A stretch of DNA of 64,000 nt from Actinomycetes bacterium (GCA_021818265.1 JAKAEP010000004.1:4108-68107), one strand, 5' to 3'; shown: positions 19,568 through 45,471, counted from the first letter of the stretch. Made by a program: numbers and translations. The notes: generated by a model not told the origin, from the letters alone.

Positions 19568-19602
19568 CCCGCGAGCCTACGGGGCGCGTGCTAGTAAGGC
19601 GC

Positions 19603-19998: not shown

Positions 19999-20000
19999 GG

Positions 20001-21569: not shown

Positions 21570-21577
21570 CTCTTCGG

Positions 21578-21583
21578 TAGCGT
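21578..21583 (+). promoter_or_regulatory. -10 hexamer TAGCGT, 7 nt upstream of ATG 21591
   Basis: TAGCGT-ggacgcc-ATG. The track start GTG 21582 lies inside the hexamer. Confidence 0.4.
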
Positions 21584-21590
21584 GGACGCC

Positions 21591-22481: not shown

Positions 22482-23356
22482 CCCCGGCCCCCGGGCCGGT
22501 CCGTCGCTGGGTGCTGGCGGCGCGCCCGCGCACGCTGCCCGCCGCCGCCGTGCCGGTGGTGCTCGGGGTCGCCCTGGTGCGGCCCGCGCCGGTCGAGTGG
22601 ACCAACAGCGCGCTCTGCCTGGTGGTCGCCCTCGCCCTGCAGGTGGGGACCAACTACGCCAACGACTACTCCGACGGCGTGCGCGGCACCGACGCGACGC
22701 GCGTGGGGCCGTTCCGGCTCACCGCGTCGGGCCTGGTGGCCGCGGCGCGGGTGCGCGACGCGGCCTGGCTCACCTTCGCGCTGGCCGCGGCGTCGGGGCT
22801 GGTGCTCGCCTCGCGCACGTCGTGGTGGCTGGTGGCGATCGGGGCGAGCGCGGTCGCGGCCGGGTGGCTCTACACCGGCGGCCCGCGGCCCTACGGCTAC
22901 CTGGGCCTGGGCGAGCTGTTCGTCTTCGTCTACTTCGGCCTCGTCGCCACGGTGGGCACCGCCTACGTCCAGCACCAGTCGATCCCGGGGCGCGCGTGGT
23001 GGCTCGGCGCCGCGGCCGGGGCGATGGCCTGCGCGCTGCTCGAGGCGAACAACCTGCGCGACGTCGAGGGCGACCGCGCGGCGCGCAAGCACACGCTGGC
23101 CGCGCGCCTGGGTCGCGAGCGCGGCGCGTGGCTCTACGGGCTCTGGGTGGCGGTCGTCGCCGGCGCCCTCGTGGGGGCGGGCGAGCTGGCGGCGGCGCTG
23201 GTCGCCCTCGTGGTGTACGCCCCGGCGCTGCGCCTGGCCTTCTCGCCGCGCCACGGGCGCGAGCTGCTCGCCCTCCTGCGCGACTCGGCGCGCGCCCAGC
23301 TGGCCCTCGGGGGAGTGGTCGCGGTGCTGCTCGCGACGGCCACCTACTGGGGCTAG
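22478..23356 (+). CDS. menA: 1,4-Dihydroxy-2-naphthoate polyprenyltransferase (UbiA family)
   Basis: ATG 22478 overlaps the menB stop (ATGA). Motifs [11 protein letters not shown] and NNLRDVEGD, with about 8 TM segments. Confidence 0.88.
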
Positions 23357-24099
23357 CCGAGGAAGTCGCGCACCACCCCCGCCACCCTCGCGGGGTCCTC
23401 GAGGTGGGCCGCGTGGCCGAGGCCCCCGAGCACGACGAGCCGGGCCCCCGCGATGGCGCCGGCGAGGCGAGTCCCGGCCTCGACGAACTTGGGGTCGCGC
23501 TCCCCGGCGAGCACGAGCGTGGGCACCTCGATCCCGGCGAGCGCCCCGAGCAGCCACGCCTGGGTCCCGGTCCCGGCGCGGCGCAGCGAGTCGGCGAGCC
23601 CGGCGGCGTCGGTGCTGCGCGTCGCGCGCTCGGCGTCGTCGCGCGCGAGGGAGGAGAAGAGGGGCTGGGCCAACCACTCCTCGAGGAAGGCCGGGGCGCC
23701 GACACGTTCGATCCGGCTCGCCAGCGCCTCGTCGCGTGCCCGGCGCGCGGCTCGCTCGGACTCGTCCTCGATGCCCGCGCTCGCGCTCAGCAGGACCAGC
23801 CGCGAGACCAGAGCGGGATGGCGCAGGGCCACGTGCAGGGCCACCCGCCCGCCCATCGAGTACCCGCCCAGCGCGACCGGCCCGGCGCCGGCCGCCGCCG
23901 CCACGAGGTCGGCCGCCTCCTCGAGCGAGGCCCTGAGCCCGGCGCTCGAGCCGTGGCCGGGCAGGTCGGGGCTGAGGACCTCGTAGTCTGTGGCCAGAAT
24001 GGTCCGGTAGCGACGGGCCGAGTCCCGGGTCTGGGTGAAGCCGTGGAGCCACACCAGCACCGGGCCCGAGCCCTCGCGCGCCACCCCGAGGAGCCCCAT
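23353..24099 (-). CDS. menH: SHCHC synthase / alpha-beta hydrolase
   Basis: LVWLHGFTQT and the nucleophile elbow GYSMGGR, within the men context. Its stop shares CTAG with the menA stop. Confidence 0.75.
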   Translation of the reverse strand: MGLLGVAREGSGPVLVWLHGFTQTRDSARRYRTILATDYEVLSPDLPGHGSSAGLRASLEEAADLVAAAAGAGPVALGGYSMGGRVALHVALRHPALVSRLVLLSASAGIEDESERAARRARDEALASRIERVGAPAFLEEWLAQPLFSSLARDDAERATRSTDAAGLADSLRRAGTGTQAWLLGALAGIEVPTLVLAGERDPKFVEAGTRLAGAIAGARLVVLGGLGHAAHLEDPARVAGVVRDFLG

Positions 24100-25757
24100 T
24101 GACCCGTAGCGTACCGAGCCCGAGCGAGGTGCAGGCCACCTTCGCCGCGACCCTCTTCGACGAGTGGCGCCGGGCCGGGCTCACCGACGTCGTACTCGCC
24201 CCGGGGTCGCGCTCGACGCCGCTGGCCCTCGCGGCGGCGGCGACCGAGGGGCTGACGCTCCACGTGCGACTCGACGAGCGCTCGGCCGCGTTCTTCGCGA
24301 TCGGCCGGGCCCTCGCGAGCGCCCGCCCGGTCGCGGTGGTGGTGACCTCGGGCACGGCCGCGGCCGAGCTGCACGCCGCCGTCGCCGAGGCCGACCTCGC
24401 CCGGGTGCCGCTGCTCGTGGTGACGGCCGACCGGCCGCCGGAGCTGCGGGGGGTCGGCGCCCCCCAGACGATCCTCCAGAGCCACCTCTACGGACCGATG
24501 GTCCGGCTCTTCGAGGAGCCCGGCGTCGCCCGGGCCGAGGCCGCGCCGACGTGGCGGCCGCTCGCGGCGCGCCTCTACGCCACCGCGCGGGGCCGCCGGG
24601 GCGAGCCGGGCCCGGTGCACCTGAACGCCGCCTTCGTCGAGCCCCTCGTGGGCGCGCCCTACGAGCTGCCCGCGGCGCGCACCGAGCCCGACGGGCCGAC
24701 CCCCGAGGTCGGTCCGGCCGCCGGCTTGGACGTGGCCGGCCGGGCCGTGCTGTGCGTGGTGGGCCTCGGGGTCTCGCCCGAGACCGTCGAGCGGGCCCGC
24801 GCGGCCGACTGGGCCGTGGTGGGCGACGCCACGGTGGCGGGCACGCTGGCCCACGCCGACGTCGTGCTGCGCGACGACGCCCTGGCCGCGTGGCTCGCGC
24901 CCGAGGTCGTCGTGCGCCTCGGTGGGGCGCCGGCCTCGAAGTCACTGGCCGCCCGCCTCGCGGGCTGGGGCGCACCCGTCGTCGCCCTCGACGATGAGGG
25001 CCCGGTCGCCGACCCCGACGGCGTCGTGACCCGCCGGGTCGGCGGCCGTCCCGACCCCGCCGAGGCGAGCCACCGGGGCGACCCCCGCTACGTGGCCCGC
25101 TGGGCCGCGTCGAGCGAGGCCGTCGAGTCGTACCTGGCCGAGCGGCGCGACGAGGTGCTCGACGAGCCGGCGGTCGCCCGGACCGTCGTCGCGGCGGCCA
25201 ACGAGGCCGGGGTCGACCTCGTGGTCGGCTCGTCGATGCCCGTGCGCGACGTGGAGTGGTGGGCGCCACCGCGCCGGGTCCGGGTCTTCTCGAACCGCGG
25301 CGCCAACGGCATCGACGGGGTCGTCTCGACGGCGCTCGGGGTGGCCGCCGGGTCGCGGGCCGTCGCCCTGGTGGGCGACCTCACCTTCCTGCACGACGTC
25401 TCGGGCCTCGTGAGCGGTCTCGGCCCGGTGGGCGGGTCGCTCGTGCTCGTCGTCGCCGACAACCGGGGCGGGGGGATCTTCTCCTTCCTCGCCCAGCGCG
25501 CGCTGCTCGAGCCCGAGCGGTTCGAGGCGCTCTTCGGCACCCCCCACGACCACGACCTCGTCGCGGTGGCGCGCGCCTTCGGGGCGTGCGCCACGCGCGT
25601 CGGTGACGCCGCGGCCCTCGCGGCCGAGGTCGCCGCGGGCCTGGCGGCCGGAGGACTCCGGGTGGTGGTGGCGACCGTGCCCGAGCGCGACGAGAACGTG
25701 GGGCGCCACGAGCGGCTCGTCGAGGGCGCCTGCCGCGCGGCGGGGGTGCTGCGATGA
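24099..25757 (+). CDS. menD: SEPHCHC synthase (ThDP-dependent)
   Basis: LFDEWRRAGLTDVVLAPGSRSTPLALA and the ThDP motif GDLTFLHD...NRGGGIF. The track start is TTG 24099, base-to-base with the menH ATG. GTG 24129 is an alternative. Confidence 0.88.
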   Translation: MTRSVPSPSEVQATFAATLFDEWRRAGLTDVVLAPGSRSTPLALAAAATEGLTLHVRLDERSAAFFAIGRALASARPVAVVVTSGTAAAELHAAVAEADLARVPLLVVTADRPPELRGVGAPQTILQSHLYGPMVRLFEEPGVARAEAAPTWRPLAARLYATARGRRGEPGPVHLNAAFVEPLVGAPYELPAARTEPDGPTPEVGPAAGLDVAGRAVLCVVGLGVSPETVERARAADWAVVGDATVAGTLAHADVVLRDDALAAWLAPEVVVRLGGAPASKSLAARLAGWGAPVVALDDEGPVADPDGVVTRRVGGRPDPAEASHRGDPRYVARWAASSEAVESYLAERRDEVLDEPAVARTVVAAANEAGVDLVVGSSMPVRDVEWWAPPRRVRVFSNRGANGIDGVVSTALGVAAGSRAVALVGDLTFLHDVSGLVSGLGPVGGSLVLVVADNRGGGIFSFLAQRALLEPERFEALFGTPHDHDLVAVARAFGACATRVGDAAALAAEVAAGLAAGGLRVVVATVPERDENVGRHERLVEGACRAAGVLR

Positions 25758-26500
25758 TCGCGACGGTCACCACCTCGTCGCTCCTCGCGGCCGTCCCCCT
25801 CGCGCTCGCGGCGGGGCTCGTCTCGTTCGTCTCGCCCTGCGTGCTGCCGCTGCTGCCGGGCTACCTCGCCTTCCTCTCGGGCTCGGCCGGGAGCCTCGAG
25901 GGCTCCCGGGGCCGGGGACGGGCCGTCGTGGGCTCGATCGCCTTCATCGTCGGCTTCGCCCTGGTCTTCGTGAGCCTCGGGGCGATCTTCGGCCAGATGG
26001 GTCGCGAGGTCCGCCTCCACCAGCGCGGCCTCGAGGAGGTCTTCGGGCTGGTCACGATCGCGCTGGGCTTCTTCTTCGCGGGGTGGTGGCCGTCGCGCTG
26101 GCTCCAGCGCGAGCGTCGGATCCACAAGGTGCCCCGGGCCTCGGTCCTCGGCGCGGGGGCCCTCGGCTTCACCTTCGGGCTGGGCTGGACCCCCTGCATC
26201 GGACCGACGCTCGCGGCGATCCTCGGGCTCGCGGCCTCCTCCTCGGGGGCGACGGCGTTGCGCGGCTCGGTGCTCGCCTTCGTCTACTGCCTGGGCTTGG
26301 GCATCCCCTTCGTGGTGGCGGCCCTCGCGACCGAGTGGATGGCGACGGCGTCGTCGTGGCTGCGCCGCCACGCCCGCCCGATCGGGACCGCGGGCGGGCT
26401 GCTGCTCATCGTCATCGGCGTCTCGGAGGTGACCGGCCTCTGGCACGCCTTCGTGGTGTGGCTGCAGGTGCACGTGCCGAACACCTCAACGGCCCTGTGA
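25754..26500 (+). CDS. ccdA: Cytochrome c biogenesis thiol-disulfide transporter CcdA (DsbD family)
   Basis: SPCVLPLLPGYLAFLSG and WTPCIGPTLAAIL carry the two conserved Cys motifs, with six TM segments. There is an ATGA overlap with menD. Confidence 0.85.
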   Translation: MIATVTTSSLLAAVPLALAAGLVSFVSPCVLPLLPGYLAFLSGSAGSLEGSRGRGRAVVGSIAFIVGFALVFVSLGAIFGQMGREVRLHQRGLEEVFGLVTIALGFFFAGWWPSRWLQRERRIHKVPRASVLGAGALGFTFGLGWTPCIGPTLAAILGLAASSSGATALRGSVLAFVYCLGLGIPFVVAALATEWMATASSWLRRHARPIGTAGGLLLIVIGVSEVTGLWHAFVVWLQVHVPNTSTAL

Positions 26501-34050: not shown

Positions 34051-34449
34051 GTGCGCCCGGGCCCCGAGCGCCACCGGGCGCGCGAGCGGGCCCTCGAGAT
34101 CCTCTACGAGGCGCAGATCAAGGGCCGCCGCGCGCCGGAAGTGCTCGCGTCGCTCGCGGTGGCGCCCGACCCCTACGCGGTGCGCCTCCTCGAGTCGGCC
34201 GAGACCCACCGCGAGCGCGCCGAGCGCCTGATCGAGGCGTGCGCGATCGACTGGCCCCTCGAGCGCATCGCCCTCGTGGACCGGCTGGTGATGACCCTCG
34301 CGGTGGGCGAGATGCTGCTCGATGACCCGCCGCCCCTCGCCGTTATCCTGGACGAGGCTGTGGAGCTGGCCAAGGTGTTCTCGACCGAGGGGTCGCCGTC
34401 GTTCGTGAACGGCGTGCTGGCCGAGGTCGCGCGGCGCCTCAGGGACTGA
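34051..34449 (+). CDS. nusB: Transcription antitermination factor NusB
   Basis: RERALEILYEAQIKG...AILDEAVELAKVFSTEGSPSFVNGVL. Confidence 0.9.
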   Translation: MRPGPERHRARERALEILYEAQIKGRRAPEVLASLAVAPDPYAVRLLESAETHRERAERLIEACAIDWPLERIALVDRLVMTLAVGEMLLDDPPPLAVILDEAVELAKVFSTEGSPSFVNGVLAEVARRLRD

Positions 34450-34465: not shown

Positions 34466-36202
34466 GTGCCGGGGATGGGTCAGAAGGGCGTCTCGCTCAC
34501 CAACGCCCTCACCGTCGCGGCCTTCCACCACAGCGCCTACCAGGTCGCCCTCTACTGGATCATCGCCGTCGCCGTGGTCGTCCTCGCGGTCGCGGCCCTC
34601 ACCGGACGGCTCGGCTCGTTCAACCTGTCGGCGGCGGGCCTCGCCGAGCCGCGCGCGCGCACCGTGCTGCGGGTGGGCTTCGGCGTGCTCTGGCTCATCG
34701 ACGGGCTCTTGCAGTTCCAGCCCGGGATGCCCCTCGGGCTCGCCAACGACGTCGTCCGGCCCGCGCTCGCGGGCACGCCCGCCTTCTTCAAGCCCGTCGT
34801 GCGTCACGCGATCACCCTGTGGAACCTGCACCCCGTCGCCCTGGCGACGGGCGTCGCCTGGCTCCAGGTCGGCCTGGCCCTGGCCCTGCTCAGCTCGAAC
34901 GGCCGGCTCGGCCGGGTGGCCGGGGCCGTGTCGGCCGGGTGGGCGCTGGGCGTCTTCGCGGTGGGCAACGGGCTCGGCGGGGTCTTCGCCCCGGGGGCGT
35001 CGATCCTCTTCGGCTGGCCCAGTGCCGCCTTCTTCTACCTGGTCGCGGGGGTGTGGCTGGCCCTCAGCCCGGACTACTTCGCCCGGCGCTTCTCGGTCGT
35101 GACGACCCGACTGGTGGCGGTCGTGCTCGCCCTCGGGGCACTGCTACAGGTCCTGCCCTCGACGGGCTTCTGGCGCGGCGGCGACGCCAACGCCCTCACC
35201 CGGATGAGCCGCTCGATGACCTCGATGGCCCAGCCCCACCCCCTCGCGTGGGTGGTGCGCCACGTCGGGGACCTCGCCGGGACGATGGGCGGGGGCTTCA
35301 ACGTGATCGTCCTCTTGTGGCTGCTCGGCACGGCCGCGGGCCTGTGGTGGGCGACGCGGCGCCCGGTCACCTGGCCCTACCTCGCGCTCGCCGTGGGCGC
35401 CGTCGTCGTCTGGGTGGTGGGCGAGGACCTGGCGGTCTTCGGGGGTGTGGGCACCGACATCAACTCGATGGTCCCGATGGCCCTCCTCGCCTGGTGCGCC
35501 CGCCCGGCCCTCGCGGCGCGCGAGCCCTACCCCCGGCGCTGGCCGCGCGAGCTGCGCTCGAACTCGGGCTCCGTGGTGGCCGCCTTCGCCGCGGCCATGG
35601 TGCTCTTCTCGGCGGTGTCGATGGGCGTGGCGGCGGCCTCCCCGGCCGAGTCGACCCTGTTCCTCGCCGCGAACGGCTCGGTGGGCACCGAGCACGCGCG
35701 CGAGACGCCCTTCACCCTCACCGACCAGCACGGTCAGCCCTACACCCTCGGCGAGCACCCGGGCCGCTACACGATCCTCGCGTTCCTCGACCCGGTCTGC
35801 TGGACCGACTGCCCGATCATCGCGAACCAGCTCGCGCAGGTGCGCGCGGCCCTCGGCCCGACGGCCCCCGTCGACGTCGTCGCGGTGGCGGCCAACCCCG
35901 AGCACCAGACGCTCGCGAACGTGCGCCACTTCATCGCCATCCACCACCTGGGCTCGATGCCCGACTTCTACTTCGTGACCGGGCCGGTCGCCGAGACCCG
36001 AAAGGTCTGGAACGCCTACGGCATCGGGGTCTCGAACGAGAAGGGCTTCGCGATGAGCGTGCACGCCGACTACCTCTTCTTGATCGACCCCCACGGCTAC
36101 ATCCGTTGGCTCGTGCCCGACGACCCCGGGACCGGGGGAGCCCAGACGACCTCGACGGTGACCGAGCTGCTCGGGCTGCTCGCCCAGATCGGCCTGCGCT
36201 AG
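34466..36202 (+). CDS. Polytopic membrane domain (~10 TM) fused to a C-terminal SCO1/SenC-type thioredoxin-fold copper chaperone domain
   Basis: The C-terminal ~170 aa contain FTLTDQHGQPYTL...ILAFLDPVCWTDCPIIANQL (CxxxCP) and MSVHADYLFLIDPHGYI (the SCO His). The N-terminal ~400 aa carry 9-10 hydrophobic helices. A GAGAGGGG Shine-Dalgarno lies 7 nt before GTG 34466. Confidence 0.7.
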   Translation: MPGMGQKGVSLTNALTVAAFHHSAYQVALYWIIAVAVVVLAVAALTGRLGSFNLSAAGLAEPRARTVLRVGFGVLWLIDGLLQFQPGMPLGLANDVVRPALAGTPAFFKPVVRHAITLWNLHPVALATGVAWLQVGLALALLSSNGRLGRVAGAVSAGWALGVFAVGNGLGGVFAPGASILFGWPSAAFFYLVAGVWLALSPDYFARRFSVVTTRLVAVVLALGALLQVLPSTGFWRGGDANALTRMSRSMTSMAQPHPLAWVVRHVGDLAGTMGGGFNVIVLLWLLGTAAGLWWATRRPVTWPYLALAVGAVVVWVVGEDLAVFGGVGTDINSMVPMALLAWCARPALAAREPYPRRWPRELRSNSGSVVAAFAAAMVLFSAVSMGVAAASPAESTLFLAANGSVGTEHARETPFTLTDQHGQPYTLGEHPGRYTILAFLDPVCWTDCPIIANQLAQVRAALGPTAPVDVVAVAANPEHQTLANVRHFIAIHHLGSMPDFYFVTGPVAETRKVWNAYGIGVSNEKGFAMSVHADYLFLIDPHGYIRWLVPDDPGTGGAQTTSTVTELLGLLAQIGLR

Positions 36203-36504
36203 CCGGTCGGGGAGCCCTCGTCGCGGTGGACGCGACGCAGGTACTCGTTGTACTCCTCGCGGGCGGCGTCCTCGACGGGGTCGGCCGGCGGCGGCTGAGG
36301 GGCGAAGCGCTCCTCTCTCAGCATCCTGCGGGTCATGTAGAGGGCGTAGAGCGCGAAGAGGGGCCACTCGAAGACGTAGGCCCAGGACAGGGCGTTGCCC
36401 CTGAGGGCCCGGTCGAGCTCGACGGCGAACGCCCCCCAGCAGATGATCTCGGCCAGGGCGAAGCCGAAGTATACGAGAAGAATGTTCTTAGTTTTCCCCG
36501 ACAT
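36199..36504 (-). CDS. Small 2-TM membrane protein, paralogue of 43511..43918
   Basis: [20 protein letters not shown] aligns with [20 protein letters not shown] in the other copy, including a 17-nt identical DNA core tacgtcttcgagtggcc. The start is ambiguous: ATG 36504 is chosen, with GTG 36558 as the alternative. Confidence 0.65.
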   Translation of the reverse strand: MSGKTKNILLVYFGFALAEIICWGAFAVELDRALRGNALSWAYVFEWPLFALYALYMTRRMLREERFAPQPPPADPVEDAAREEYNEYLRRVHRDEGSPTG

Positions 36505-36579
36505 AGGTCCCAAACTCTCACGGCGACCTGAGTACTCTTCCTCCGGAGCCGAAAGCACCCTTCGCTAAGGAGCATAGGT

Positions 36580-37263
36580 ATGACGATGAGTGGAAGATTG
36601 GGAGCAGTCCTAGGACTCTTCGTGATCGCCGTGGGGCTGATCATCTGGGTCTTGATGGGCCTCCTGACGCCCGGGACACCGGAGGGCGTCGTCAACTACG
36701 TGGGCTCGTCGGCCCCGGGACAGCCGGTCAACCTGACGATCCAGACGGTGGGCTCGATGGGCGTGGGCGACCGCCCGACCTGGGTGAGCTACCTGGCGCG
36801 GACCCCCCAGGGCCAGTGGGTCCACGACACCACCTGGCAGCTGCCGGCCAACACCCTCATCAACGTGACCGTCTACCAGTACGACTCGGGCAGCCCCTTG
36901 CGCAACCAGCAGTACGGCCAGGTCACCGGCACGATCGGCAACAGCGAGACCGTGAACGGCAAGACGATCCACGCCTTCAACTCCTACGACGGGGCGGGCG
37001 TCGGCCACACGTTCACCGTCCCGGCCCTCGGGATCAGCGTCCCGCTGCTCGGCAGCCCCGCCGCCAACCTCTGCGGCGTGGCCCCGTGCCAGCCCAAGTG
37101 GCCGCACAACCTCATCCACTTCAGCTTCAAGACGCCCGCCAAGACCGGCGAGTACCACTGGCAGTGCTTCGTGCCCTGCGCGGCGGGCTGGCTCTACGGC
37201 AACGGCGGTCCGATGTCGACCCAGGGCTTCATGGGCGGCTTCTTGGACGTGGTCCAGCAGTAA
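36580..37263 (+). CDS. Membrane-anchored cupredoxin-fold protein with degenerate CuA-like site
   Basis: One N-terminal TM (LGAVLGLFVIAVGLIIWVLMGLL). GVGHTFTVPALGISVP resembles the COX2 H-x-F-x-[VI]-P-x-L-G block. YHWQCFVPCAAGWLYGNGGPM keeps the C-x3-C pair but lacks the CuA His at +4. An AAGGAG Shine-Dalgarno lies 7 nt upstream. Confidence 0.6.
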   Translation: MTMSGRLGAVLGLFVIAVGLIIWVLMGLLTPGTPEGVVNYVGSSAPGQPVNLTIQTVGSMGVGDRPTWVSYLARTPQGQWVHDTTWQLPANTLINVTVYQYDSGSPLRNQQYGQVTGTIGNSETVNGKTIHAFNSYDGAGVGHTFTVPALGISVPLLGSPAANLCGVAPCQPKWPHNLIHFSFKTPAKTGEYHWQCFVPCAAGWLYGNGGPMSTQGFMGGFLDVVQQ

Positions 37264-37296
37264 CCGGATTCGAGCGACGACGACGGAGATATTGCA

Positions 37297-38268
37297 ATGA
37301 ACAACGAACCTCGCCACATGCGCCGAATCGTGACCGCCTGGGTCATCGCGTCGGTCATCGGTGACCTGCTCTGGTGGTTCCTGGTCGGTCCGCACATCCC
37401 CCCGGGGAACATGACCGAGTCGGCCCACTGGAACCAGTTCGACTTCAACATCCTCGCCATCACGGCCCTGCCGGTCGTCTTCATGGTGTGGATCTGGATG
37501 GGCTACGCGCTGGTCAACTGGCGCGACAAGCCGGGCGTTCCCGACCCGGTCGGCGGCGAGGCGGCCAAGGCCCCCTACAAGGTGCAGGCCGCCTGGATCT
37601 CGATCACCTCGATCGTGGTCATCTCGGCGGCCATCTACGGCACCATCGCCCTGATCGGGGACCACGGCTCCGGCGGCGGCGAGGGACCGAACCCGGTCTG
37701 GGCCCCCGCGGGCACGATCGCGGCCAACACCGCGGCCATCCAGGGCAAGGCGACCTGGTCGCCCACGGGTGACCAGCCGCTCGTCGTCCAGGTCATCGCC
37801 CAGCAGTGGAAGTTCAACTACCGCTACCCGGCCTTCGGCGGCATGGAGACGAACCGGCTCATCCTGCCGGTGAACACCGACGTGGTCTTCGACGTCACCT
37901 CGCTCGACGTCATCCACGACTTCTGGGCCTACCAGCTGAGCGTGAAGGCCGACGCGAACCCCGGAGTGAACAACGTCGCCTTCGCCGAGACCCGTCAGAC
38001 CGGACAGTTCATGGTCCGCTGCGACGAGCTGTGCGGGATCTGGCACGGGGCGATGTACAACAGCGGCCGGATCCTCTCGAAGACGGCCTTCATGGCCTGG
38101 GCGACCAAGACCGAGGCCCAGAACGCCTCGAACACCAAGTACCTCCCGCCCTTCGCGTGGACCTACACCCCGGACGCCAACGGCGCCAACGGCGGCCTCT
38201 ACCCCGACGGCAACGTGACGCCCTACAGCCCGTACGACACCTACGGCGCCAAGCAGCCCGCCTCGTGA
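37297..38268 (+). CDS. ctaC: Cytochrome c oxidase subunit II (CuA present, no cytochrome c domain)
   Basis: A complete CuA ligand set is present: VIHDFWAYQL...CDELCGIWHGAM. Three N-terminal hydrophobic helices are present. Confidence 0.88.
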   Translation: MNNEPRHMRRIVTAWVIASVIGDLLWWFLVGPHIPPGNMTESAHWNQFDFNILAITALPVVFMVWIWMGYALVNWRDKPGVPDPVGGEAAKAPYKVQAAWISITSIVVISAAIYGTIALIGDHGSGGGEGPNPVWAPAGTIAANTAAIQGKATWSPTGDQPLVVQVIAQQWKFNYRYPAFGGMETNRLILPVNTDVVFDVTSLDVIHDFWAYQLSVKADANPGVNNVAFAETRQTGQFMVRCDELCGIWHGAMYNSGRILSKTAFMAWATKTEAQNASNTKYLPPFAWTYTPDANGANGGLYPDGNVTPYSPYDTYGAKQPAS

Positions 38269-38323
38269 GCGTCGAACCCGTTCTAGTAATGCGTGATCAC
38301 TGTCAAGAAATGGAGATGGTGCG

Positions 38324-40294
38324 ATGACAATTAGCGCCGAGCGACCCACCGAGACGGCGGCCGGCACTACGGCGCCCACGGGACCTCGAGGGGTCTCGTG
38401 GACCAACCGTCCCGGCTGGATGAGCCAGCACCTGGGCACAGCGTTGGTGCTGGCGTTCCTGGGCTACCTGCTGGGCCACTGGTGGGGCAACCACATCGCC
38501 GGGAACTACGCGTACATCAACGGCGCGAGCGGCCAGAACAGCGTCGCCGACTTCCTCGCCCTGCTGCTCATGGTGGTGGGCTGGCTCGTCGGCATCGGTG
38601 CGCTGAACTACCCGATCGCCAAGCTCTTCGGCCGCGAGGCGGTAGAGGAGGAGCCGGCCAAGGGGCTGAGCCGGTACTTCCGCTACACCCTCGACCACAA
38701 GGTCGTGGGCATGCAGTACGTGGTGGGCGTCCTGCTCTTCATGTTCACCGGCGGACTGCTCGCCATGGCCATCCGCACCGAGCTGCTCAACCCGACGGTC
38801 CACATCTTCAACCCCGGGACCTACATCGAAATCGTGTCCGAGCACGGGACGATCATGATGATGATGGCGACCTCGATCATCGTCGGGCCGCTGGGCAACT
38901 ACCTGGTGCCCCTGATGATCGGCTCTCGCCGCATGGCCTTCCCGCGCATCGAGGCGTTCAGCTTCTGGATCTTCTCGGCCGGCTACATGGTCATCTTCTC
39001 GGCCCTCTTCTTCGGCGGGTTCCCGACCGGGTGGACGGGTTACGCCCCGCTGCAGAACCAGGCGGGCCCGGGCATGATCTCCTACCTGTTCGGCTTCGCC
39101 GTGATCGGCATGGGCATGATCGCGGCCGGCTTCAACATCGCGGTCACGATCGTCAACTACCGCGCGCCGGGGATGACCTGGAGCCGGGTGCCGATGTTCG
39201 TGTGGTCGATCCTCGCGACGGCCTCGCTGCTCACCCTGGCCACGCCGGTGCTGTTCTCGGCCGGCCTCTTCGGCATCCTGGACCACGTGGTGCTCACGAG
39301 CCTCTACGTGAACGAGCACGGCGGGAGCTCGTACCTTTGGGAGAACCTCTTCTGGTTCTTCGGCCACCCGGAGGTGTACATCATGGCCCTGCCGGGCTTC
39401 GGCATCGTGGCCGAGATCGTCCCGGTGTTCACCCGCAAGCCGCTGTTCGCCTACAAGGTCGCGGCGGCGGGCATGATGGGCGTGGCGTTGCTGTCGTTCT
39501 TCGTGTGGCAGCACCACCTCTTCCAGAGCGGCATCAACCCCGACATGCGGCCCCTGTTCATGCTCACGACCGAGCTGATCTCCATCCCCACGGGCTTCAT
39601 CTACCTGGTGGGCATGGGCTCGCTGTACAAGTCGAAGATGCGCCTCGAGATCCCGATGCTCTTCTCGCTCGCGCTCTACTTCAACTTCCTGATCGGTGGC
39701 ATCACCGGCGTCTTCCTCTCGGACGTGCCGGTGAACGTGACGGTGCACGGCAGCTTCTTCGTGCTGTCGCACTTCCACTACACGATCATGGGCGGGCTGC
39801 TCTTCGCCTTCATGGCCGGCCTGTACTACTGGCTGCCCAAGATGACGGGCTACATGATGAACAAGAAGCTCGGCCTGTGGCACTTCTGGACGATGTTCAT
39901 CTTCTTCAACCTGACCTTCTTCCCGATGTTCATCATCGGCCTGCTCGGTCAGCCCCGCCGTGTCTTCGAGTACGCCCACAACCTGCAGGGCCTGAACGAC
40001 TTCTCGTCGATCAGCGCGTTCTGCCTCGGGGCATCGTTCCTGCTGTTCTTCTGGAACCTCATGTACTCGATGATCATTAACCCGCAGAAGGCGCCGGCGA
40101 ACCCGTGGGACTCGCTGGGCCTCGAGTGGCAGACGGCGAACCCGGTCCCGCTCTACAACTTCGAGCGGATCCCGGTCATCGTGACCGAGCCCTACCGCTA
40201 CAGCGAGCCGGGCGCCCCGGCGTACGCGGACTTCGGCGGCGGGGGATCGGGCAGCGGTTCGTCGAGTTCGGTCAGCAGTTCGGTCGAAGAGTGA
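38324..40294 (+). CDS. ctaD: Cytochrome c oxidase subunit I (A-type), with N-terminal two-helix extension and Gly/Ser tail
   Basis: Motifs TLDHKVVGMQY, WFFGHPEVYIMALPGFG, WQHHLF and HFHYTIMGG. The TLDHK motif only appears at residue ~122. Confidence 0.93.
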   Translation: MTISAERPTETAAGTTAPTGPRGVSWTNRPGWMSQHLGTALVLAFLGYLLGHWWGNHIAGNYAYINGASGQNSVADFLALLLMVVGWLVGIGALNYPIAKLFGREAVEEEPAKGLSRYFRYTLDHKVVGMQYVVGVLLFMFTGGLLAMAIRTELLNPTVHIFNPGTYIEIVSEHGTIMMMMATSIIVGPLGNYLVPLMIGSRRMAFPRIEAFSFWIFSAGYMVIFSALFFGGFPTGWTGYAPLQNQAGPGMISYLFGFAVIGMGMIAAGFNIAVTIVNYRAPGMTWSRVPMFVWSILATASLLTLATPVLFSAGLFGILDHVVLTSLYVNEHGGSSYLWENLFWFFGHPEVYIMALPGFGIVAEIVPVFTRKPLFAYKVAAAGMMGVALLSFFVWQHHLFQSGINPDMRPLFMLTTELISIPTGFIYLVGMGSLYKSKMRLEIPMLFSLALYFNFLIGGITGVFLSDVPVNVTVHGSFFVLSHFHYTIMGGLLFAFMAGLYYWLPKMTGYMMNKKLGLWHFWTMFIFFNLTFFPMFIIGLLGQPRRVFEYAHNLQGLNDFSSISAFCLGASFLLFFWNLMYSMIINPQKAPANPWDSLGLEWQTANPVPLYNFERIPVIVTEPYRYSEPGAPAYADFGGGGSGSGSSSSVSSSVEE

Positions 40295-40309
40295 GTGGAG
40301 AGATCCAAG

Positions 40310-40966
40310 ATGACTGACACCTACAAGGACTCGCTGGCGCCCAACGCCACGCCCGAGGAGCGGGAGTTCGAGTTCCGCTCGCACATCGGGTCTATCTGGA
40401 CCGGGGGACGGCTCGCCATCGGCGTGGCGACGTTCATGTACGCGTCGCTGGCGTTCGCGTACTTCTACCTGCGCTCCAGCAACAACTCCCACCTGTGGCG
40501 GATCCCGGGGCAGCTCGCCCCCCTCTACTACGGCTGGACGATCCTGATCTGCATGCTGCTCATGGCGGGTCTGGGGATGTACGGCCACAGCCGGCTGCGC
40601 AAGGGGTTCACCAACGACTTCCAGGTGGCCGGCTGGACCGGGGTGGCGTTGGGCGTCATCGCCCTGATCTTCCAGGTCTGGGAGCTCGTGGTCCTGCCCT
40701 TCTACCCGGGTTCGAGCGGCTACGCGTCGACGTTCGTGGCCTTCGTGGTCATGAATATCATGACGATCGTCTTCGCGACGTACTGGCTGGAGACGGCGGT
40801 GGCTCGGTCCCTGCGCATGCGTAAGGAGCTGGGCGGGACCAAGCCCGAGCTCTCGTCGGCCCACACGGCGCGCTCGTTCCGGGCCAACGTGTCCTCGATG
40901 TCGTACTACCTGGGATACGTCGGTATCATCAGCATCGGGTTCTTCCTGATGTTCTACGTGCAGTAG
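40310..40966 (+). CDS. ctaE: Heme-copper oxidase subunit III (short, 5-TM form)
   Basis: Hydrophobic pattern and FAYFYLR...H...W..V blocks are typical of COX3. ATG 40310 has a GGAGAG Shine-Dalgarno 7 nt upstream. The track start GTG 40295 is the alternative. Confidence 0.75.
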   Translation: MTDTYKDSLAPNATPEEREFEFRSHIGSIWTGGRLAIGVATFMYASLAFAYFYLRSSNNSHLWRIPGQLAPLYYGWTILICMLLMAGLGMYGHSRLRKGFTNDFQVAGWTGVALGVIALIFQVWELVVLPFYPGSSGYASTFVAFVVMNIMTIVFATYWLETAVARSLRMRKELGGTKPELSSAHTARSFRANVSSMSYYLGYVGIISIGFFLMFYVQ

Positions 40967-41001
40967 CCGCCGGGTTGGATCTGAGTTAAGGAGAGTTGGC
41001 T

Positions 41002-41112
41002 GTGGACATCTACATCGGCCCCCAGGTCCAGACCATGGTCTTCCTGCTGGGCGTGCTCGGAGCTGTGATCATCTGGGGAGCCTTCCAGCACCGGAATCAC
41101 ACCGAGAAGTAG
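41002..41112 (+). CDS. Unannotated 36-codon single-TM ORF (below the ORF-track length cut-off)
   Basis: GTG 41002 is preceded by AAGGAG (40988-40993) with an 8-nt spacer. The translation is VDIYIGPQVQTMVFLLGVLGAVIIWGAFQHRNHTEK, and 33 of 36 third codon positions are G/C. It lies between ctaE and the CtaG-like gene. Confidence 0.6.
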   Translation: MDIYIGPQVQTMVFLLGVLGAVIIWGAFQHRNHTEK

Positions 41113-41127
41113 GCGGTCGCGAGCCGC

Positions 41128-41904
41128 ATGTCGTATCGGGTGCGGCGGCTCCGTGACGCATCACTGATCGCAGGGGTGGTCGCGTGGGCGTTGTTCCTCG
41201 CGCCACCCCTCGATTCGTGGGCGGGGCGCTACGAGTTCGTGAACGCGCTGCAGTTCGGGGTGTTCGCCTTCTGGGTCCCGGCGGCCCTGTCCGTGGGCGC
41301 GCCCTGGCGGCTGACGCGCGCGGGTCGCGCTCTCGCGGCGGGTGACACGAAGGCGACCTGGCTCACGCGCTGGATGGCCCGGCGAGAGGCGTTCTCGCGC
41401 GAGGCGCGGGCGGTGATCGCGACCGTGGCGTTCATCCTTCTCGAGGTGTTCTGGCGCCTCGCGCCGGTCGTCGACGATATCGCCGTGCATCGGTGGGGCC
41501 GGGCGCTCGAGTCGCTGACCCTGGTGGGCGCGGGCGTGGCCCTCTTCTTGTCGCTGGTGGAGTCGCCGCCGCTGACGCCCCTGCCCAAGCGCGTCTTTCG
41601 GATCTTCATGGCCGCCCCGGCCATGTGGACGATCTGGATCATCGGCTACATGGACGGCATGACCGGCGCCGGGTGGTACCGGGTCTTCCACCACGTGGCC
41701 GGGACCGGGGTGTCCCTCGTCGCCGACAAGGAGATCGCCACGGGCATCCTCTGGGCGACGTCGGCGGTGATCTTCATCCCGATCGTGTTCTGGAACATGA
41801 TCCACTGGCTGCAGGCCGAGTCGACCCCGGACGAGGAGATGTACGACCTGGTGCGCGAGGAGCGCACCCGCGGCTTCTTCGGACCGCGGGCTGAGCGCTT
41901 CTAG
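41128..41904 (+). CDS. Divergent CtaG-like (Caa3_CtaG family) membrane protein lacking the conserved histidines
   Basis: PPLDSWAGRYEFVNALQFGVFAFWVPAALSVGAPW aligns with [35 protein letters not shown] of 43915..44856. DKEIATGILW aligns with [10 protein letters not shown]. Confidence 0.6.
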   Translation: MSYRVRRLRDASLIAGVVAWALFLAPPLDSWAGRYEFVNALQFGVFAFWVPAALSVGAPWRLTRAGRALAAGDTKATWLTRWMARREAFSREARAVIATVAFILLEVFWRLAPVVDDIAVHRWGRALESLTLVGAGVALFLSLVESPPLTPLPKRVFRIFMAAPAMWTIWIIGYMDGMTGAGWYRVFHHVAGTGVSLVADKEIATGILWATSAVIFIPIVFWNMIHWLQAESTPDEEMYDLVREERTRGFFGPRAERF

Positions 41905-41910
41905 CCTCGG

Positions 41911-42585
41911 CTAGCCGGCCGGGGGCGGGCTCACCACCGGCAGGCGCGGCGTGATGAGCGGGGCGCCAAGGGTCCGGCTCGCCAGGGAGATGTCGCCGAG
42001 GACGTGGTCGCGCTCCCGGTTGAGTTCGGACGCCTGGTAGGCGAGGTTGGCCTTCAGGGACGCGTTGGTCGGGTCGTCGAGCAGCTGGCGGATGTCCTGG
42101 ATGGCCTTGAGGGCGGTGCCGCTGATCCAGTGGTCGAGGGCCGTGTGGGCGGCGTCGACGTGCTTGCCCGCGGCGGTCAGGGTGATCTGGATGTTGTTCG
42201 TGAGGTCGTAGACGGGCTGGCCGGCGAAGGAGCAGGGGACCTCGTCCTCGGCGATGTAGGTCTTGGTGGTCGCGAGGTCGGCGGGCGTCAGAGCGCCCCC
42301 GACGAACTTGGCGTACAGCGAGAAGCTCTCCTTGACGCCGTAGGCGCACTCGCGGGCGTCGCTGCGCATCTGGGTGAGGACGGCGTTCTGGGCGGCGATG
42401 TCCTGGGAGACGGTGATCGGGTGGGGCAGGTCGGTCACCACCGAGACCGCGATAATGACCGCGGCGATCGACGACACGAGGAACCACGGCCGCCGGAACC
42501 AGGGCACGCGCCGGTTCGTCAGCGACGAGATGGCCATCGTCGAAGGGTCGTACTCCTCCTCGGAGAGGTCCAGGTGGTCGGTCAC
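41911..42585 (-). CDS. Membrane-anchored extracytoplasmic protein, translationally coupled to SCO (function unknown)
   Basis: GTG 42585 overlaps the SCO stop (GTGA). There is one TM (WFLVSSIAAVIIAVSVV) and two Cys in the exported part. Confidence 0.6.
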   Translation of the reverse strand: MTDHLDLSEEEYDPSTMAISSLTNRRVPWFRRPWFLVSSIAAVIIAVSVVTDLPHPITVSQDIAAQNAVLTQMRSDARECAYGVKESFSLYAKFVGGALTPADLATTKTYIAEDEVPCSFAGQPVYDLTNNIQITLTAAGKHVDAAHTALDHWISGTALKAIQDIRQLLDDPTNASLKANLAYQASELNRERDHVLGDISLASRTLGAPLITPRLPVVSPPPAG

Positions 42586-43268
42586 GGGACGAGACTACCG
42601 GCGGTCTGGGCGATGCCCTCTGCCCAGCGCGCCACCTGGGTGGCGCCCAGGGTGTAGGTGCCCGATCGGCTCTCGTTCGCGAACGGGGTGGCGAGGTCGG
42701 CGAGGCCGCCGTGTTGGCCGATGAAGTACATGACCTCGTTGTGGGCCATCTGGGTCGAGCGGCGGCCCACGGTGATGGTGACGCCGTAGTTCGACCACAC
42801 CGGGTCGATCTGGGACAGGCTCCCGGTCAGGAAGTACACGTCCCCCAGGCGGTCGAGCCCGGTGCGCGACAGGGCCGGGGGATCGGCGCTCACCTTGAGG
42901 TCGCGCGGGTCGGTGTTCACCACCACGAAGTCCACCCCGTGGGCCCGGGGCCCGAGGAGCGACTCCGCACGGCGGATCTCCTCGCCGACGACCGGACAGA
43001 TGTCGGTGCAGGTGCTGTTGTAGAACGTGAGGACCACGGCGTGGCCCCGGGCGCCTCGGAGGGTCCAGGAGGCCCCGTGCTGGTCGGTCAGGGTGAAGCC
43101 CGGCGCCACCTTGGAGCTGATGGGCTTGAGCCCCATGAGGGCGTCGAGGCTGGAGGCGAGCGGCCGGGTGGACCCGGCGGGAGCCGCCGTCGTGGCGTGG
43201 GGCGCCGGGGTCGAGCCGACGCGACCGAGGTAGTAGTCGGCCACGAGACCGATGACCCCGAGGAGCAC
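42582..43268 (-). CDS. SCO1/SenC-family copper chaperone / thiol-disulfide oxidoreductase
   Basis: FTLTDQHGASWTL...VVLTFYNSTCTDICPVVGEEI (CxxxCP) and MAHNEVMYFIGQHGG. GTG 43268 lies inside the predicted TM helix, so the true start may be upstream (see findings). Confidence 0.8.
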   Translation of the reverse strand: MLLGVIGLVADYYLGRVGSTPAPHATTAAPAGSTRPLASSLDALMGLKPISSKVAPGFTLTDQHGASWTLRGARGHAVVLTFYNSTCTDICPVVGEEIRRAESLLGPRAHGVDFVVVNTDPRDLKVSADPPALSRTGLDRLGDVYFLTGSLSQIDPVWSNYGVTITVGRRSTQMAHNEVMYFIGQHGGLADLATPFANESRSGTYTLGATQVARWAEGIAQTAGSLVP

Positions 43269-43498
43269 CAGGATCGTGACGAAGCGGCCGACGTAGCGGC
43301 TCGACGCCTTCGGCGTCCCCTCGGCCAGGGCCCGCCGTCGCTGCTCCTCGGAGAGCCCGCGGGGTGCGTCGGCGCGTTGCTCTTCGGACAGATCGGAGAT
43401 GAGGGCCTCCCGGGTGGTGAAGTCGCCGCGACGGTGGACTCACGCTACCACCGGCCGGATTCCTCGGCCCGGGCGTTGAGCGGGCGGGGAGCGCGAAG

Positions 43499-43504
43499 TA
43501 GCCT
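43499..43504 (+). promoter_or_regulatory. -10 hexamer TAGCCT, 6 nt upstream of GTG 43511
   Basis: TAGCCT-cgcgac-GTG. A divergent TAGCGT box for the SCO operon lies at 43442-43447 on the minus strand. Confidence 0.45.
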
Positions 43505-43510
43505 CGCGAC

Positions 43511-43918
43511 GTGAGCGAATCGCCTCGTGAGGCGTCACCCGATGCGCCCCCCGAACGGCTCCGCGGGGCTGCGGCGCTGCGACTCCACCTGACCCTCGCC
43601 GCCGGGCTCGCGCTGTGCGCGGTCGCGTTCTGGTTCGAGCTGCGCCGGGCCGAGGGCGGCAACGGCCTCAGCTGGGCGTACGTCTTCGAGTGGCCGCTTC
43701 TCGGGATCTTCGCCGTCTACATGTGGTGGAAGTTCCTGCACCCGGGCCGCGACGCCGCGCGCGAGAGAGCCCGGGCCCGGCGCCGCCCGCCCGCCCCGGT
43801 CGTCGAGGCGCAGTACCAGGGGATGCTCGAGGCGTGGCAGGCCCATCAGCGCGAGCTCACCGAGCGCCAGGCGGTCGAGGACACTCAGAGGTCCCGCCCG
43901 CCCTGGACCCCGTCGTGA
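43511..43918 (+). CDS. Small 2-TM membrane protein, paralogue of 36199..36504, coupled to ctaG
   Basis: It shares the [10 protein letters not shown] core with the other copy. Its stop overlaps the ctaG GTG (GTGA). Confidence 0.7.
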
Positions 43919-44856
43919 GGGCCCTCACCCAGGGCTGGTCCTGGGACCCCACGGTCTACGCGCTCGCGCTCACGGTCGCGGCCCACGAGCTCGGGCTGCG
44001 CCGTCTCGCCCGGCGCTCCTCGGCGAGGAACCAGCGCGCCCGGCGCCGTCGCGCCGGGGCCTTCTACGCCGGGCTCGCCCTGTTGCTTCTCACGATCGAC
44101 TCGCCCCTCGACTACTGGTCGAGCAGCTACTTCTACGTCCACATGATCGAGCACATCGTCCTGATGTTCTTCGTGCCGATCCTCGTGGTGTGGGGCGCGC
44201 CGTGGAACCCGCTGCTCTTCGCCCTGCCGGTGCGCTGGCGGCGCGCCACCGGGCGGTTCTTCTACCTGAGCCCCCGGGCCCGGCCGTACCGGGCGGTCGG
44301 CCGCCTGGTGCGCAACCCCTGGTTCGCCCTCGTCGTGATGAACGTGGTGATGCTCGCCTGGCACGTCCCACGGCTCTTCGACCTCGCCGAGACCAACGCG
44401 TTCGTCCACATCGTCCTCATGCACGGCAGCTACGTCGTGGCCGGGATCCTCTTCTGGCTCCAGATCGTGCCCTCGTTCCCGATGACGCCGCGCAAGGGCT
44501 ACGTCTGGCAGGGGAGCGCGATCCTCTTCACGAACCTCGTGATGACCATGCTCGCGATCTCCATGAGCATCCTCACCTCGACGAGCTGGTACAGCGTCTA
44601 CGACCACGTACCGGGCGTCACCCTCTCGCCCTTCGCCGACCAGCAGATCGGCGCGGCGATCCTGTGGATCTGCGGCGACTTCTGGGCCCTACCGGGGATC
44701 AGCTACGTCATCCGCAAGGCCATCCGCACCGAGGGCTCGGCCGGCGCGGTGCTCGACCGGCTGACCGGGCGCGCGTCCCACTTCGGCACCGAGGTGCCCC
44801 ACTGGCCCGCCTCGAACGTGGAGGCGGCGATCAACGCCAAGTACGAGTCGGAGTAG
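43915..44856 (+). CDS. ctaG: Cytochrome c oxidase assembly factor CtaG (Caa3_CtaG family)
   Basis: Polytopic membrane protein with the HMIEH motif in [28 protein letters not shown]. Further His residues are at WHVPRLFD and VHIVLMHG. Confidence 0.7.
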
Positions 44857-44928: not shown

Positions 44929-45471
44929 GTGACCGAGAGCACCGATGGCCCGCGCACCCCGAGCGGGGCCGCCCGACCCCTCCTGTCGTCGTCCGACGTC
45001 ACCCGGGCGCTGCGCCGGATGGCCCACGAGATCCTCGAGCGCAACCACGAGGCGCCCGTCTGCGTGGTCGGCCTCCAGCGCGGCGGGGTGGCCCTGGCCG
45101 AGCGGCTCGCCCGCGACCTCGAGGAGGTCGGTGCGAGCGGGGTGGAGCTCGGCCGGCTCGACGTCGCCTTCTTCCGCGACGACCTGGCGGCGCGGCCCGT
45201 CACCGGCGCCGGCGCCACGGCGCTGCCGGCGCTCGAGGACCGCGTGGTCGTGCTCGTCGACGACGTCCTCTACACCGGGCGCACCGTGCGCGCCGCGCTG
45301 AACGCCCTCGTCGAGTGGGGCCGGCCCCGGGCGGTGCAGCTCGCGGTCCTCGTCGACCGCGGCCACCGGGAGCTGCCCATCCGCGCCGACTTCGTGGGCA
45401 AGAACGTCCCCACCTCCCGCGAGGAGTCGGTGCGCGCCACCCTCGAGGGCGTCTGGCTGGAGCGGCCGTGA
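44929..45471 (+). CDS. pyrR: Bifunctional pyrimidine operon regulator / uracil phosphoribosyltransferase
   Basis: PRPP-binding motif [18 protein letters not shown], followed by pyrB. Confidence 0.92.

Follow-up and report, generated by a model that had tools for sequence, protein, structure and literature searches.

Results

The oxidase locus

The DNA analyzed is a 64,000-nucleotide stretch (GCA_021818265.1, JAKAEP010000004.1:4108-68107; hereafter the window, with positions counted from its first letter) that carries a cluster of heme-copper oxidase genes at positions 34466–44856. The source organism is an Acidimicrobiales bacterium (class Acidimicrobiia). The ~10.4 kb oxidase block lies between nusB (34051–34449) and pyrR (44929–45471), an arrangement that an earlier note had read from the sequence and that the gene calls confirm. 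Because the GC content of the window is ~75%, genes were called by frame analysis of the GC content at third codon positions (GC3) together with translation. The calls agree with the NCBI calls on the source contig DAIEMX010000058.1 of the metagenome-assembled genome (MAG) GCA_027349245.1, in which the locus is identical. Thirteen genes are counted between nusB and pyrR, of which 12 are itemised here and designated g1, g2m, g3–g10, g11a and g11.

Searches of the window proteins against Pfam and NCBIfam recovered COX2, COX1, two SCO1/SenC and two Caa3_CtaG proteins. The same searches gave no match for g2m, g3, g6, g7, g9, g11a or residues 1–390 of g1, and no PCuAC or Cox11 gene in the block. 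Profile searches against all chains in the PDB with g3, g6, the N-terminal domain of g1, g9 and the family of proteins with two transmembrane (TM) helices (2-TM proteins) returned nothing significant. The statement of the earlier note that several open reading frames (ORFs) have no assigned family thus holds for the N-terminal domain of g1, the pair g2m/g11a, g3 and g9, none of which has a Pfam, NCBIfam or PDB sequence match. As that note also described, the block lacks qcr, ctaF, ctaA, ctaB and cytochrome c genes. Gene calls and domain scans found no qcr, ctaA, ctaB or ctaF anywhere in the 64-kb window, in which the UbiA-family protein is MenA and so not the ctaB product, and the CxxCH motif is absent from every supported ORF of the window. 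Neither the block nor its intergenic regions showed anything over background when scanned for promoters, terminators, Rfam families and inverted repeats.

Related loci were collected by a CtaD scan over one genome per GTDB species, in which the GHWWGNH motif of the CtaD N-terminus also served as a pattern. The scan yielded 538 relatives, and the loci of the best 80 of these were compared. In these 80, CtaD is 73–97% identical and full length, including its N-terminal extension. Most are labelled as MAGs of Acidimicrobiales, Acidimicrobiaceae or Actinomycetes, and a few as Acidobacteria or Saccharibacteria bins. The relatives, among them a Ferrimicrobium-labelled MAG and RAAP-2, were sampled in bogs, palsa, mine drainage and soil. 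Gene order was counted by tblastn of all window proteins against the relatives' loci, with loci of sufficient sequence as denominators: 71 upstream of ctaD, 67 downstream of it and 55 fully covered.

Subunits I and II

Gene g4 (37297–38268, plus strand) encodes CtaC, the oxidase subunit II, which has two TM helices and in which the CuA site is complete (Pfam COX2, E value 1e-15). The CuA motif reads C242-D-E-L-C246, and residues H207, C242, E244, C246, H250 and M253, together with the entry tryptophan (QQW171), are invariant among 31 orthologues. Because the CuA site and the entry tryptophan are invariant, the enzyme is expected to use a protein electron donor and not quinol.

Gene g5 (38324–40294, plus strand) encodes CtaD, the subunit I, with a 120-residue N-terminal extension (Pfam COX1, E value 1e-124, residues 128–566). 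Residues were assigned by alignment to bovine COX1; the bovine COX1 and COX3 references were entered by hand, and for COX1 the residue identities were verified by script at every numbered position used. CtaD residues H174, H485, H483, H348, H397, H398 and Y352 correspond to bovine H61, H378, H376, H240, H290, H291 and Y244, respectively. The ligand set is therefore complete, with two histidines for heme a, one for heme a3 and three for CuB, in addition to the helix VI tyrosine. E350, within the GHPEVY motif, corresponds to bovine E242. The proton channels depart from the bovine enzyme: D91 is replaced by R203, N98 by E210, K319 by I426, M310 by E417 and S255 by alanine, and PTGFI stands in place of the K-channel motif PTGVK. 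In this alignment CtaD has neither the canonical K-channel lysine nor the D-channel entry aspartate, and the substitutions, like the retained residues, are conserved across all 80 orthologues. K-channel and D-channel variation of this kind is known within the A family, according to the sequence classification in PMC8239418. Ligand mapping and the Pfam matches confirm the complete CuA site of ctaC and the GHPEVY motif and metal-binding histidines of ctaD given in the earlier note; judged from its ligands, CuA site and GHPEVY motif, the oxidase is a member of the A family of heme-copper oxygen reductases.

The COX1 domain of CtaD begins at residue 128 and is preceded by hydrophobic segments at residues ~35–57 and 74–100. 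Residues 1–125 (window 38324–38700) hold the conserved GHWWGNH motif, with its two histidines, in the extra helix pair. A '2TM Chloroflexi & Actinobacteria' subclade of COX1, characterized by two extra TM helices, HPEVY, replacement of K354 by Ile or Leu and an associated caa3_CtaG, is catalogued in supplementary Table S1 and Fig. S7 of Degli Esposti et al. 2021 (PMC8239418), with Acidimicrobium ferrooxidans WP_015799102, Acidithrix ferrooxidans WP_052605977 and an Acidimicrobiaceae MAG among its members. CtaD of the window shares with this subclade the extra helices, HPEVY, the K-channel Lys to Ile/Leu replacement with the threonine kept, caa3_CtaG and an origin in Acidimicrobiia, and by this match of features it would belong to it. 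The COX1 type was thus already catalogued at the sequence level. The parts of PMC8239418 that classify COX1, CtaA and CtaG sequences contain no g3-type cupredoxin, ligand-less CtaG, Sco fusion, 2-TM proteins or gene order. The COX3 and COX4 proteins of such clusters are described by the same authors as too divergent to be related to those elsewhere.

The best matches of CtaD among solved structures are the bc1-aa3 enzymes of Mycobacterium tuberculosis (8HCR), M. smegmatis (6ADQ/6HWH) and Corynebacterium glutamicum (7Q21), with E values of 1e-116 to 5e-119. These enzymes resemble CtaD in belonging to the A family and in carrying GHPEVY. They differ in having no 2-TM extension (the matches start at g5 residues 97–121), an intact K-channel lysine, dispersed genes and the di-heme QcrC as donor, and g6 and g7 show no recognisable relationship to their CtaE and CtaF. 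In Mycobacterium and Corynebacterium ctaD stands alone, ctaC is followed by ctaF and ctaE lies beside qcrCAB. The earlier note had taken this arrangement as its baseline, which is the wrong yardstick for class Acidimicrobiia, since the source is an Acidimicrobiales bacterium. Both subunits miss the cut-offs of the NCBIfam models for actinobacterial aa3 oxidases (NF050116/NF050117), with scores of 448.6 against 880 for CtaD and 69.9 against 250 for CtaC. The QoxB model scores CtaD nearly as high as the actinobacterial aa3 model does, and the scores of the CyoA and QoxA models are far under their cut-offs.

The membrane-anchored cupredoxin g3

Directly upstream of ctaC, g3 (36580–37263, plus strand) encodes a 227-residue TM-anchored cupredoxin, identified by structure prediction, Foldseek and the invariant residues of its family, so that the membrane-anchored cupredoxin before ctaC reported in the earlier note is confirmed. 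The AlphaFold2 model, calculated with 56 homologues, has a predicted local distance difference test score (pLDDT) of 79 and shows a TM helix at residues 3–29 followed by a β-sandwich. A Foldseek search of the PDB places rusticyanin (1e-5), subunit II of the ba3 oxidase (2QPE_B) and AcoP (4.6e-4) at the top. An exhaustive profile search defined a family of 617 cluster representatives at 50% identity, for which there is no Pfam model and whose named members are called 'hypothetical', save for a few mislabelled YaiE (UPF0345). Longer family members were checked for fusions, and the sole case is a probable merged call of a CtaG and a cupredoxin.

Among 30 full-length sequences, down to 30% identity, residues P89, D102, G117, H143, F183, C196, P199, C200, M212, M218 and G220 are invariant. 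The signature of g3 is H143, C196-F-V-P-C200, M212 and M218, with a loop devoid of histidine and a family form of Cys-x-x-Pro-Cys. C165, C170 and H176 were considered as core ligands and were ruled out, as they are conserved in the near clade only. A weak profile–profile alignment places H143, C196 and C200 of g3 on H207, C242 and C246 of the CtaC CuA site. The match to auracyanin is also weak, and there C200 falls at the position of the second histidine of the type-1 site. Compared with the CuA domain of subunit II (Thermus ba3, 2QPE_B), g3 shares the fold and the positions of one histidine and of Cys-x3-Cys. It differs in having no second histidine, no glutamate of the C-x-E-x-C motif, a loop of 11 rather than 6 residues before the methionine, a single TM anchor and an insertion of ~40 residues. 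By these features g3 looks like a CuA-type cupredoxin that has no second histidine and a longer loop before the methionine.

The position of g3 directly upstream of ctaC is kept in all 71 loci, and also in distant lineages. Distant g3 homologues have COX2 directly downstream and, nearby, a COX1 of 635–651 residues, a subunit-III-sized gene without a Pfam match and Caa3_CtaG. At one such locus (L085) COX1 shares just 49% identity with g5 and still carries the N-terminal extension, PTGII and PRIEA.

Among characterized proteins the closest analogue is AcoP ('cup', PDB 7Z3B), which like g3 has an N-terminal TM anchor and a gene immediately upstream of coxB/ctaC. AcoP is encoded before coxB in the rus operon of Acidithiobacillus ferrooxidans, interacts with the oxidase and may carry electrons (PMC10804444). 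The oxidase of that organism also resembles g5 in belonging to the 2TM-extended group that lacks the K channel. The two cupredoxins differ in their ligands, which are His/Cys/His/Met with C-x6-H in AcoP and His/Cys-x3-Cys/Met/Met in g3, and their sequence similarity is undetectable. The rus operon additionally carries cytochromes c and rusticyanin, neither of which is present in the oxidase block. Membrane-attached cupredoxins also replace cytochrome c as donors to CuA oxidases in organisms that have no periplasm, namely sulfocyanin SoxE of the Sulfolobus SoxM complex and haloarchaeal halocyanin. Those proteins differ from g3 in being archaeal, in having classical type-1 sites and in being encoded with Rieske and cytochrome b genes.

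Conservation of the gene order

The cluster was found in all 80 relatives compared, and its gene order is kept. Genes g3 and g4 lie upstream of ctaD in 71/71 loci, and g6, g8, g9 and g10 lie downstream of it in 66/67. In the 55 fully covered loci g11a is present throughout, g7 in 49, g11 in 47, g1 in 44 and g2m in 36, and both flanks, nusB and pyrR, are retained in 41. The accessory ORFs therefore co-occur with ctaCDE in related genomes, a check that the earlier note had proposed.

Individual loci show variations on this order. At L038 (4221–7835) the Sco-fusion gene g1 is present in two tandem copies, and L039 has an additional Sco gene between g1 and g2m. One sublineage (L058, 13642–14124 and 16219–17145; L034 likewise) carries a PsiE-family gene between g8 and g9 and a weakly DUF6069-like gene between g11a and g11, and its g11 is inverted. 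Two different partial clusters, L017 and L074, occur in one bin, the MAG 'SPRUCE 489', with CtaD 83% and 74% identical to that of the window; the bin either holds a genuine second copy or combines two populations.

The subunit-III-like gene and the small peptide

The gene that directly follows ctaD, g6 (40310–40966, plus strand), encodes a highly divergent subunit-III-like protein with five predicted TM helices, so assigned from its position, a weak hhalign match and the names given by JGI, where its orthologues are called 'oxidase subunit 3'. Alignment with the hand-entered bovine COX3 sequence gave a weak match (E value 0.0025, probability 12%) that is in register at YGSTFF. None of 33 g6 orthologues matches Pfam COX3, and Pfam scans of every member of the g6 alignment, like those of the g1 N-terminal domain, yielded nothing at E values up to 5 beyond scattered chance matches (e.g. 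TatC and DUF6232). Of the ctaE gene reported in the earlier note, the position stands; its identity is recognized by no standard hidden Markov model. It is followed by the 36-codon TM ORF of that note, which the present calls uphold: g7 (41002–41112, plus strand) encodes a 36-residue single-TM peptide at the position of subunit IV, supported by the NCBI call and by tblastn conservation.

Copper maturation and accessory genes

Two Caa3_CtaG-like proteins are encoded, one of them without the HMxxH motif, in agreement with the earlier note. Gene g11 (43915–44856, plus strand) encodes a canonical Caa3_CtaG (Pfam E value 3e-45, 155 bits to PF09678) in which H76-M-x-x-H80, H165, M169, D242, C253 and D255 are kept; H76, H80, H165, D242 and D255 are invariant in its family. 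Gene g8 (41128–41904, plus strand), with which the structural operon ends at every locus, encodes a membrane protein of the Caa3_CtaG fold without candidate metal ligands (Pfam E value 2e-17; 64 bits, over the Pfam cut-off). All of the listed g11 residues except D242 are replaced in g8: in the g11 columns H76 is Q, M77 is A, H80 is F, H165 is V, C253 is L and D255 is A, with D-Q-Q and the tryptophans kept. As g8 is a ligand-less paralogue, the two copies are not functional duplicates. The earlier claim that every copper-maturation component is duplicated is thus overstated, g8 having lost its ligands and g1 and g11 being present in only 44 and 47 of the 55 fully covered loci, respectively.

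Both proteins of the SCO CxxxCP type keep CxxxC and the histidine and score over the Pfam cut-off, and Pfam and structure prediction confirm that one of them is fused to about ten helices, as had been noted. Gene g1 (34466–36202, plus strand) encodes this 578-residue fusion of a ~10-helix membrane domain with an extracytoplasmic Sco domain (Pfam SCO1-SenC, E value 2e-12), in which CWTDC occupies residues 445–449 and the histidine is H533. Its AlphaFold2 model (pLDDT 77) shows ~10 helices followed by a Sco fold, for which Foldseek gave a TM-score of ~0.8 to ScoI. A Foldseek search with the full model returned only Sco and thioredoxin structures, for the C-terminal domain, and the N-terminal 390 residues have no match in Pfam or the PDB. 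A DoxX/MauE-like identity of the membrane domain, considered for its R..G..W..G..Q pattern, found no support, and a Pfam scan of the members of the N-terminal alignment at E values up to 5 gave scattered chance matches only. The fusion family comprises 549 proteins, and every organism-named member is from Acidimicrobiales or Acidimicrobiaceae.

The second Sco protein, encoded by g10 (42582–43439, minus strand; Pfam SCO1-SenC, E value 3e-13), is membrane anchored and carries CTDIC. The NCBI start at 43268 would give 228 residues and cuts the predicted TM helix. A GTG at 43439 gives 285 residues that include the complete anchor and a cytoplasmic tail, and the corresponding ORFs of L034 and L058 are 288–293 residues long, so that the start at 43439 is the more likely one. 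The start of g9 (41911–42585, minus strand) overlaps the stop of g10, and the two genes are translationally coupled. As judged from translation and alignment, g9 encodes a membrane-anchored extracytoplasmic protein with two invariant cysteines, C80 and C118, and is without a match in Pfam or the PDB. The block holds four Cys-x3-Cys motifs, those of the two Sco proteins and of the cupredoxins g3 and g4, which suggests one Sco protein per cupredoxin.

The two paralogous 2-TM proteins, which like the Sco-coupled membrane protein g9 agree with the earlier description, are encoded by g2m (36199–36504, minus strand), divergently oriented to g3, and by g11a (43511–43918, plus strand; translation and NCBI call). 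They are 34% identical, and a 17-residue invariant motif is common to both. The stop of g11a overlaps the start of g11, and these genes are translationally coupled.

Elsewhere in the window, a CcdA/DsbD_TM gene (25754–26500, plus strand) lies between menD and tyrS, ~8 kb upstream of the oxidase cluster, with no resB or resC alongside. Its product could provide reductant to the Sco CxxxC proteins, instead of or besides cytochrome c maturation. A menaquinone cluster occupies ~18458–25757 and comprises a MenE-like AMP-binding protein, MenB (ECH_1), MenA, a hydrolase and MenD. A 667-residue protein with a DsbH-type thioredoxin domain (PF03190) is encoded at ~11434–13437 on the minus strand.

Discussion

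A cupredoxin as the proposed electron entry

We consider it probable that the block is the lineage-typical locus of an aa3-type A-family oxygen reductase of Acidimicrobiales, inherited vertically at the nusB/pyrR site, in which the g3 cupredoxin serves as electron entry. The operon g3–g8 would encode the enzyme itself, with g3 as cupredoxin, g4 as CuA subunit, g5, the divergent subunit III g6, g7 and g8. Subunit I (g5) has 14 helices by prediction and an intact catalytic centre, with the K-channel lysine and the D-channel entry aspartate replaced, and g8 may be a structural or scaffold subunit. The three flanking units, namely g1, g10 with g9, and g11 with g11a and its paralogue g2m, would be responsible for copper and thiol chemistry at the outer face of the membrane. 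The two Sco proteins may have g3 and g4, the two Cys-x3-Cys cupredoxins, as their targets, and g11 would load CuB. These assignments support the earlier description of the cluster as self-contained, encoding an A-family oxidase together with genes for its own copper delivery.

The likeliest role of g3 is that of an AcoP- or sulfocyanin-like partner for electron entry, which on the outer face would pass electrons to CuA, as proposed for AcoP and sulfocyanin, and which would take the place of cytochrome c. Electrons may reach g3 from a membrane complex or, in bacteria that oxidise iron, from Fe(II). Entry other than through cytochrome c, which the earlier note had raised, is plausible, as we infer from the absence of CxxCH from the window and from the invariable coupling of the cupredoxin gene to ctaC. 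Whole cells of Acidimicrobium and Ferrimicrobium give Fe(II)-reducible spectra dominated by a-type hemes (PMC5143472); these spectra and the absence of a c-type cytochrome from the window are consistent with entry through a cupredoxin.

Several observations weigh against this assignment of g3. The C-terminal ligand loop of g3 is modelled at a pLDDT below 50, and the profile–profile similarity between g3 and CtaC is statistically weak (E value 0.029), as is the COX3 match. The physical partnership of g3 with the oxidase is a prediction from sequence and gene order, and one distant homologue at 30% identity (L086, 2083–2730, GCA_036704725.1) adjoins no oxidase gene. The family may thus have uses outside the oxidase; the L086 homologue is located near a gene of the F420H2-dependent quinone reductase family. 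With two cysteines and no second histidine, the ligands of g3 are unlike those of any characterized electron-transfer cupredoxin and resemble the chemistry of Cu(I) chaperones. The true donor could also be a cytochrome c or QcrC encoded elsewhere in the genome, and ccdA, which in other bacteria has a role in cytochrome c maturation, is present in the window. Three related RAAP-2 MAGs with the cluster carry automated annotations of 'caa3', bd and cbb3 oxidases (PMC8357290).

In the main rival explanation g3, a cupredoxin in its scaffold, would carry no electrons; as a chaperone it would deliver copper to the CuA site of CtaC, or help to assemble that site, in place of PCuAC and together with the two Sco proteins. 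Its set of one histidine, two cysteines and two methionines is typical of Cu(I) binding and close to the CxxxC and histidine of Sco, and its ligand loop is predicted to be flexible. The missing PCuAC and Cox11 genes of the block would then have a substitute, and the fold of PCuAC is itself cupredoxin-like (PMC9145763). A role in CoxB maturation is also considered by the authors of the AcoP study, Acidithiobacillus ferrooxidans being without the usual factors (PMC10804444). Against a chaperone, g3 heads the structural operon and precedes ctaC everywhere, whereas the clear assembly genes form separate units of varying position, and two Sco proteins are already present. Three of its ligands can be aligned with CuA positions of CtaC, which points to a redox centre of CuA ancestry. 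On this balance the chaperone is a possible explanation and falls short of a probable one.

The earlier note had described the block as an island encoding an alternative oxidase. Read in this way, the block would be a horizontally acquired enzyme beside a canonical bc1-aa3 supercomplex encoded elsewhere. In favour of this, the block interrupts nusB–pyrR, total GC dips to 64–67% at window positions 37000–41000 (ctaC–ctaE) compared with ~75% in the flanks, CtaD and CtaC score far under the actinobacterial aa3 cut-offs, and the label 'Acidimicrobium ferrooxidans 1' in the supplement of PMC8239418 implies that the species has at least two COX1 proteins. GC3 of the block, however, is 0.93–0.97 and equals that of the flanking efp, nusB and pyrR. 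The dip is explained by codon positions 1 and 2, which are AT-richer in genes of hydrophobic proteins, and is no sign of foreign DNA. No mobile-element genes were found in the window. The shared insertion site (41/55) and the presence of the cluster in all 80 relatives indicate that any transfer predates the clade. Composition and distribution thus do not support the terms 'island' and 'alternative'; an acquired island is rejected on GC3 and synteny, and the wider possibility of an acquired second oxidase is quite unlikely. Since GC3 matches the flanks and synteny is kept among related genomes, the block is, on sequence grounds, an ancestral, vertically inherited feature of the Acidimicrobiales clade and not a recent island.

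A-family quinol oxidases (CyoA, QoxA) are without CuA. That the enzyme is a quinol oxidase with no protein donor, as the lack of a nearby cytochrome c or bc gene, the menaquinone biosynthesis cluster ~10 kb upstream and the closeness of the QoxB and actinobacterial aa3 scores of CtaD could suggest, is extremely improbable in view of the complete and invariant CuA site of subunit II, to which the conserved entry tryptophan and the low CyoA and QoxA scores may be added.

Implications

The vertically inherited oxidase with cupredoxin entry can be extended to a more general proposal, in which the g3 family is an undescribed CuA-derived copper centre that acts as a dedicated electron entry, replacing cytochrome c, in the K-lysine-less A-type oxidases of Gram-positive acidophiles of soil and mine water. 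In iron-oxidising Acidimicrobiaceae the centre could then link extracellular Fe(II) or a membrane donor to the a-type hemes. In this general form the proposal is speculative and rather doubtful. To the extent of the literature searched, the accessory set has no earlier description, and this holds especially for the g3 cupredoxin family. To our knowledge, there is no biochemical study of the catalogued COX1 type, and the respiratory chain of Acidimicrobiales is not known to have been isolated or resolved into its components.

Members of the Acidimicrobiales occur in large numbers in acidic peat, permafrost and mine drainage, and iron oxidation is found in some of them. For these bacteria the locus provides a complete and highly conserved parts list of what is probably their main heme-copper oxidase. 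Its parts include the CuA-like ligand set of g3, which is without precedent, a ligand-less protein of the CtaG fold that is a possible subunit, a fusion of Sco with a membrane domain, and a 2-TM partner of CtaG. If g3 is a chaperone, it would represent a new route of CuA assembly. If electrons enter through g3, the A-family oxidase of these bacteria would be fed by a sulfocyanin- or AcoP-like copper protein and not by cytochrome c, and this would help to explain the path of electrons from iron to oxygen in Gram-positive acidophiles.

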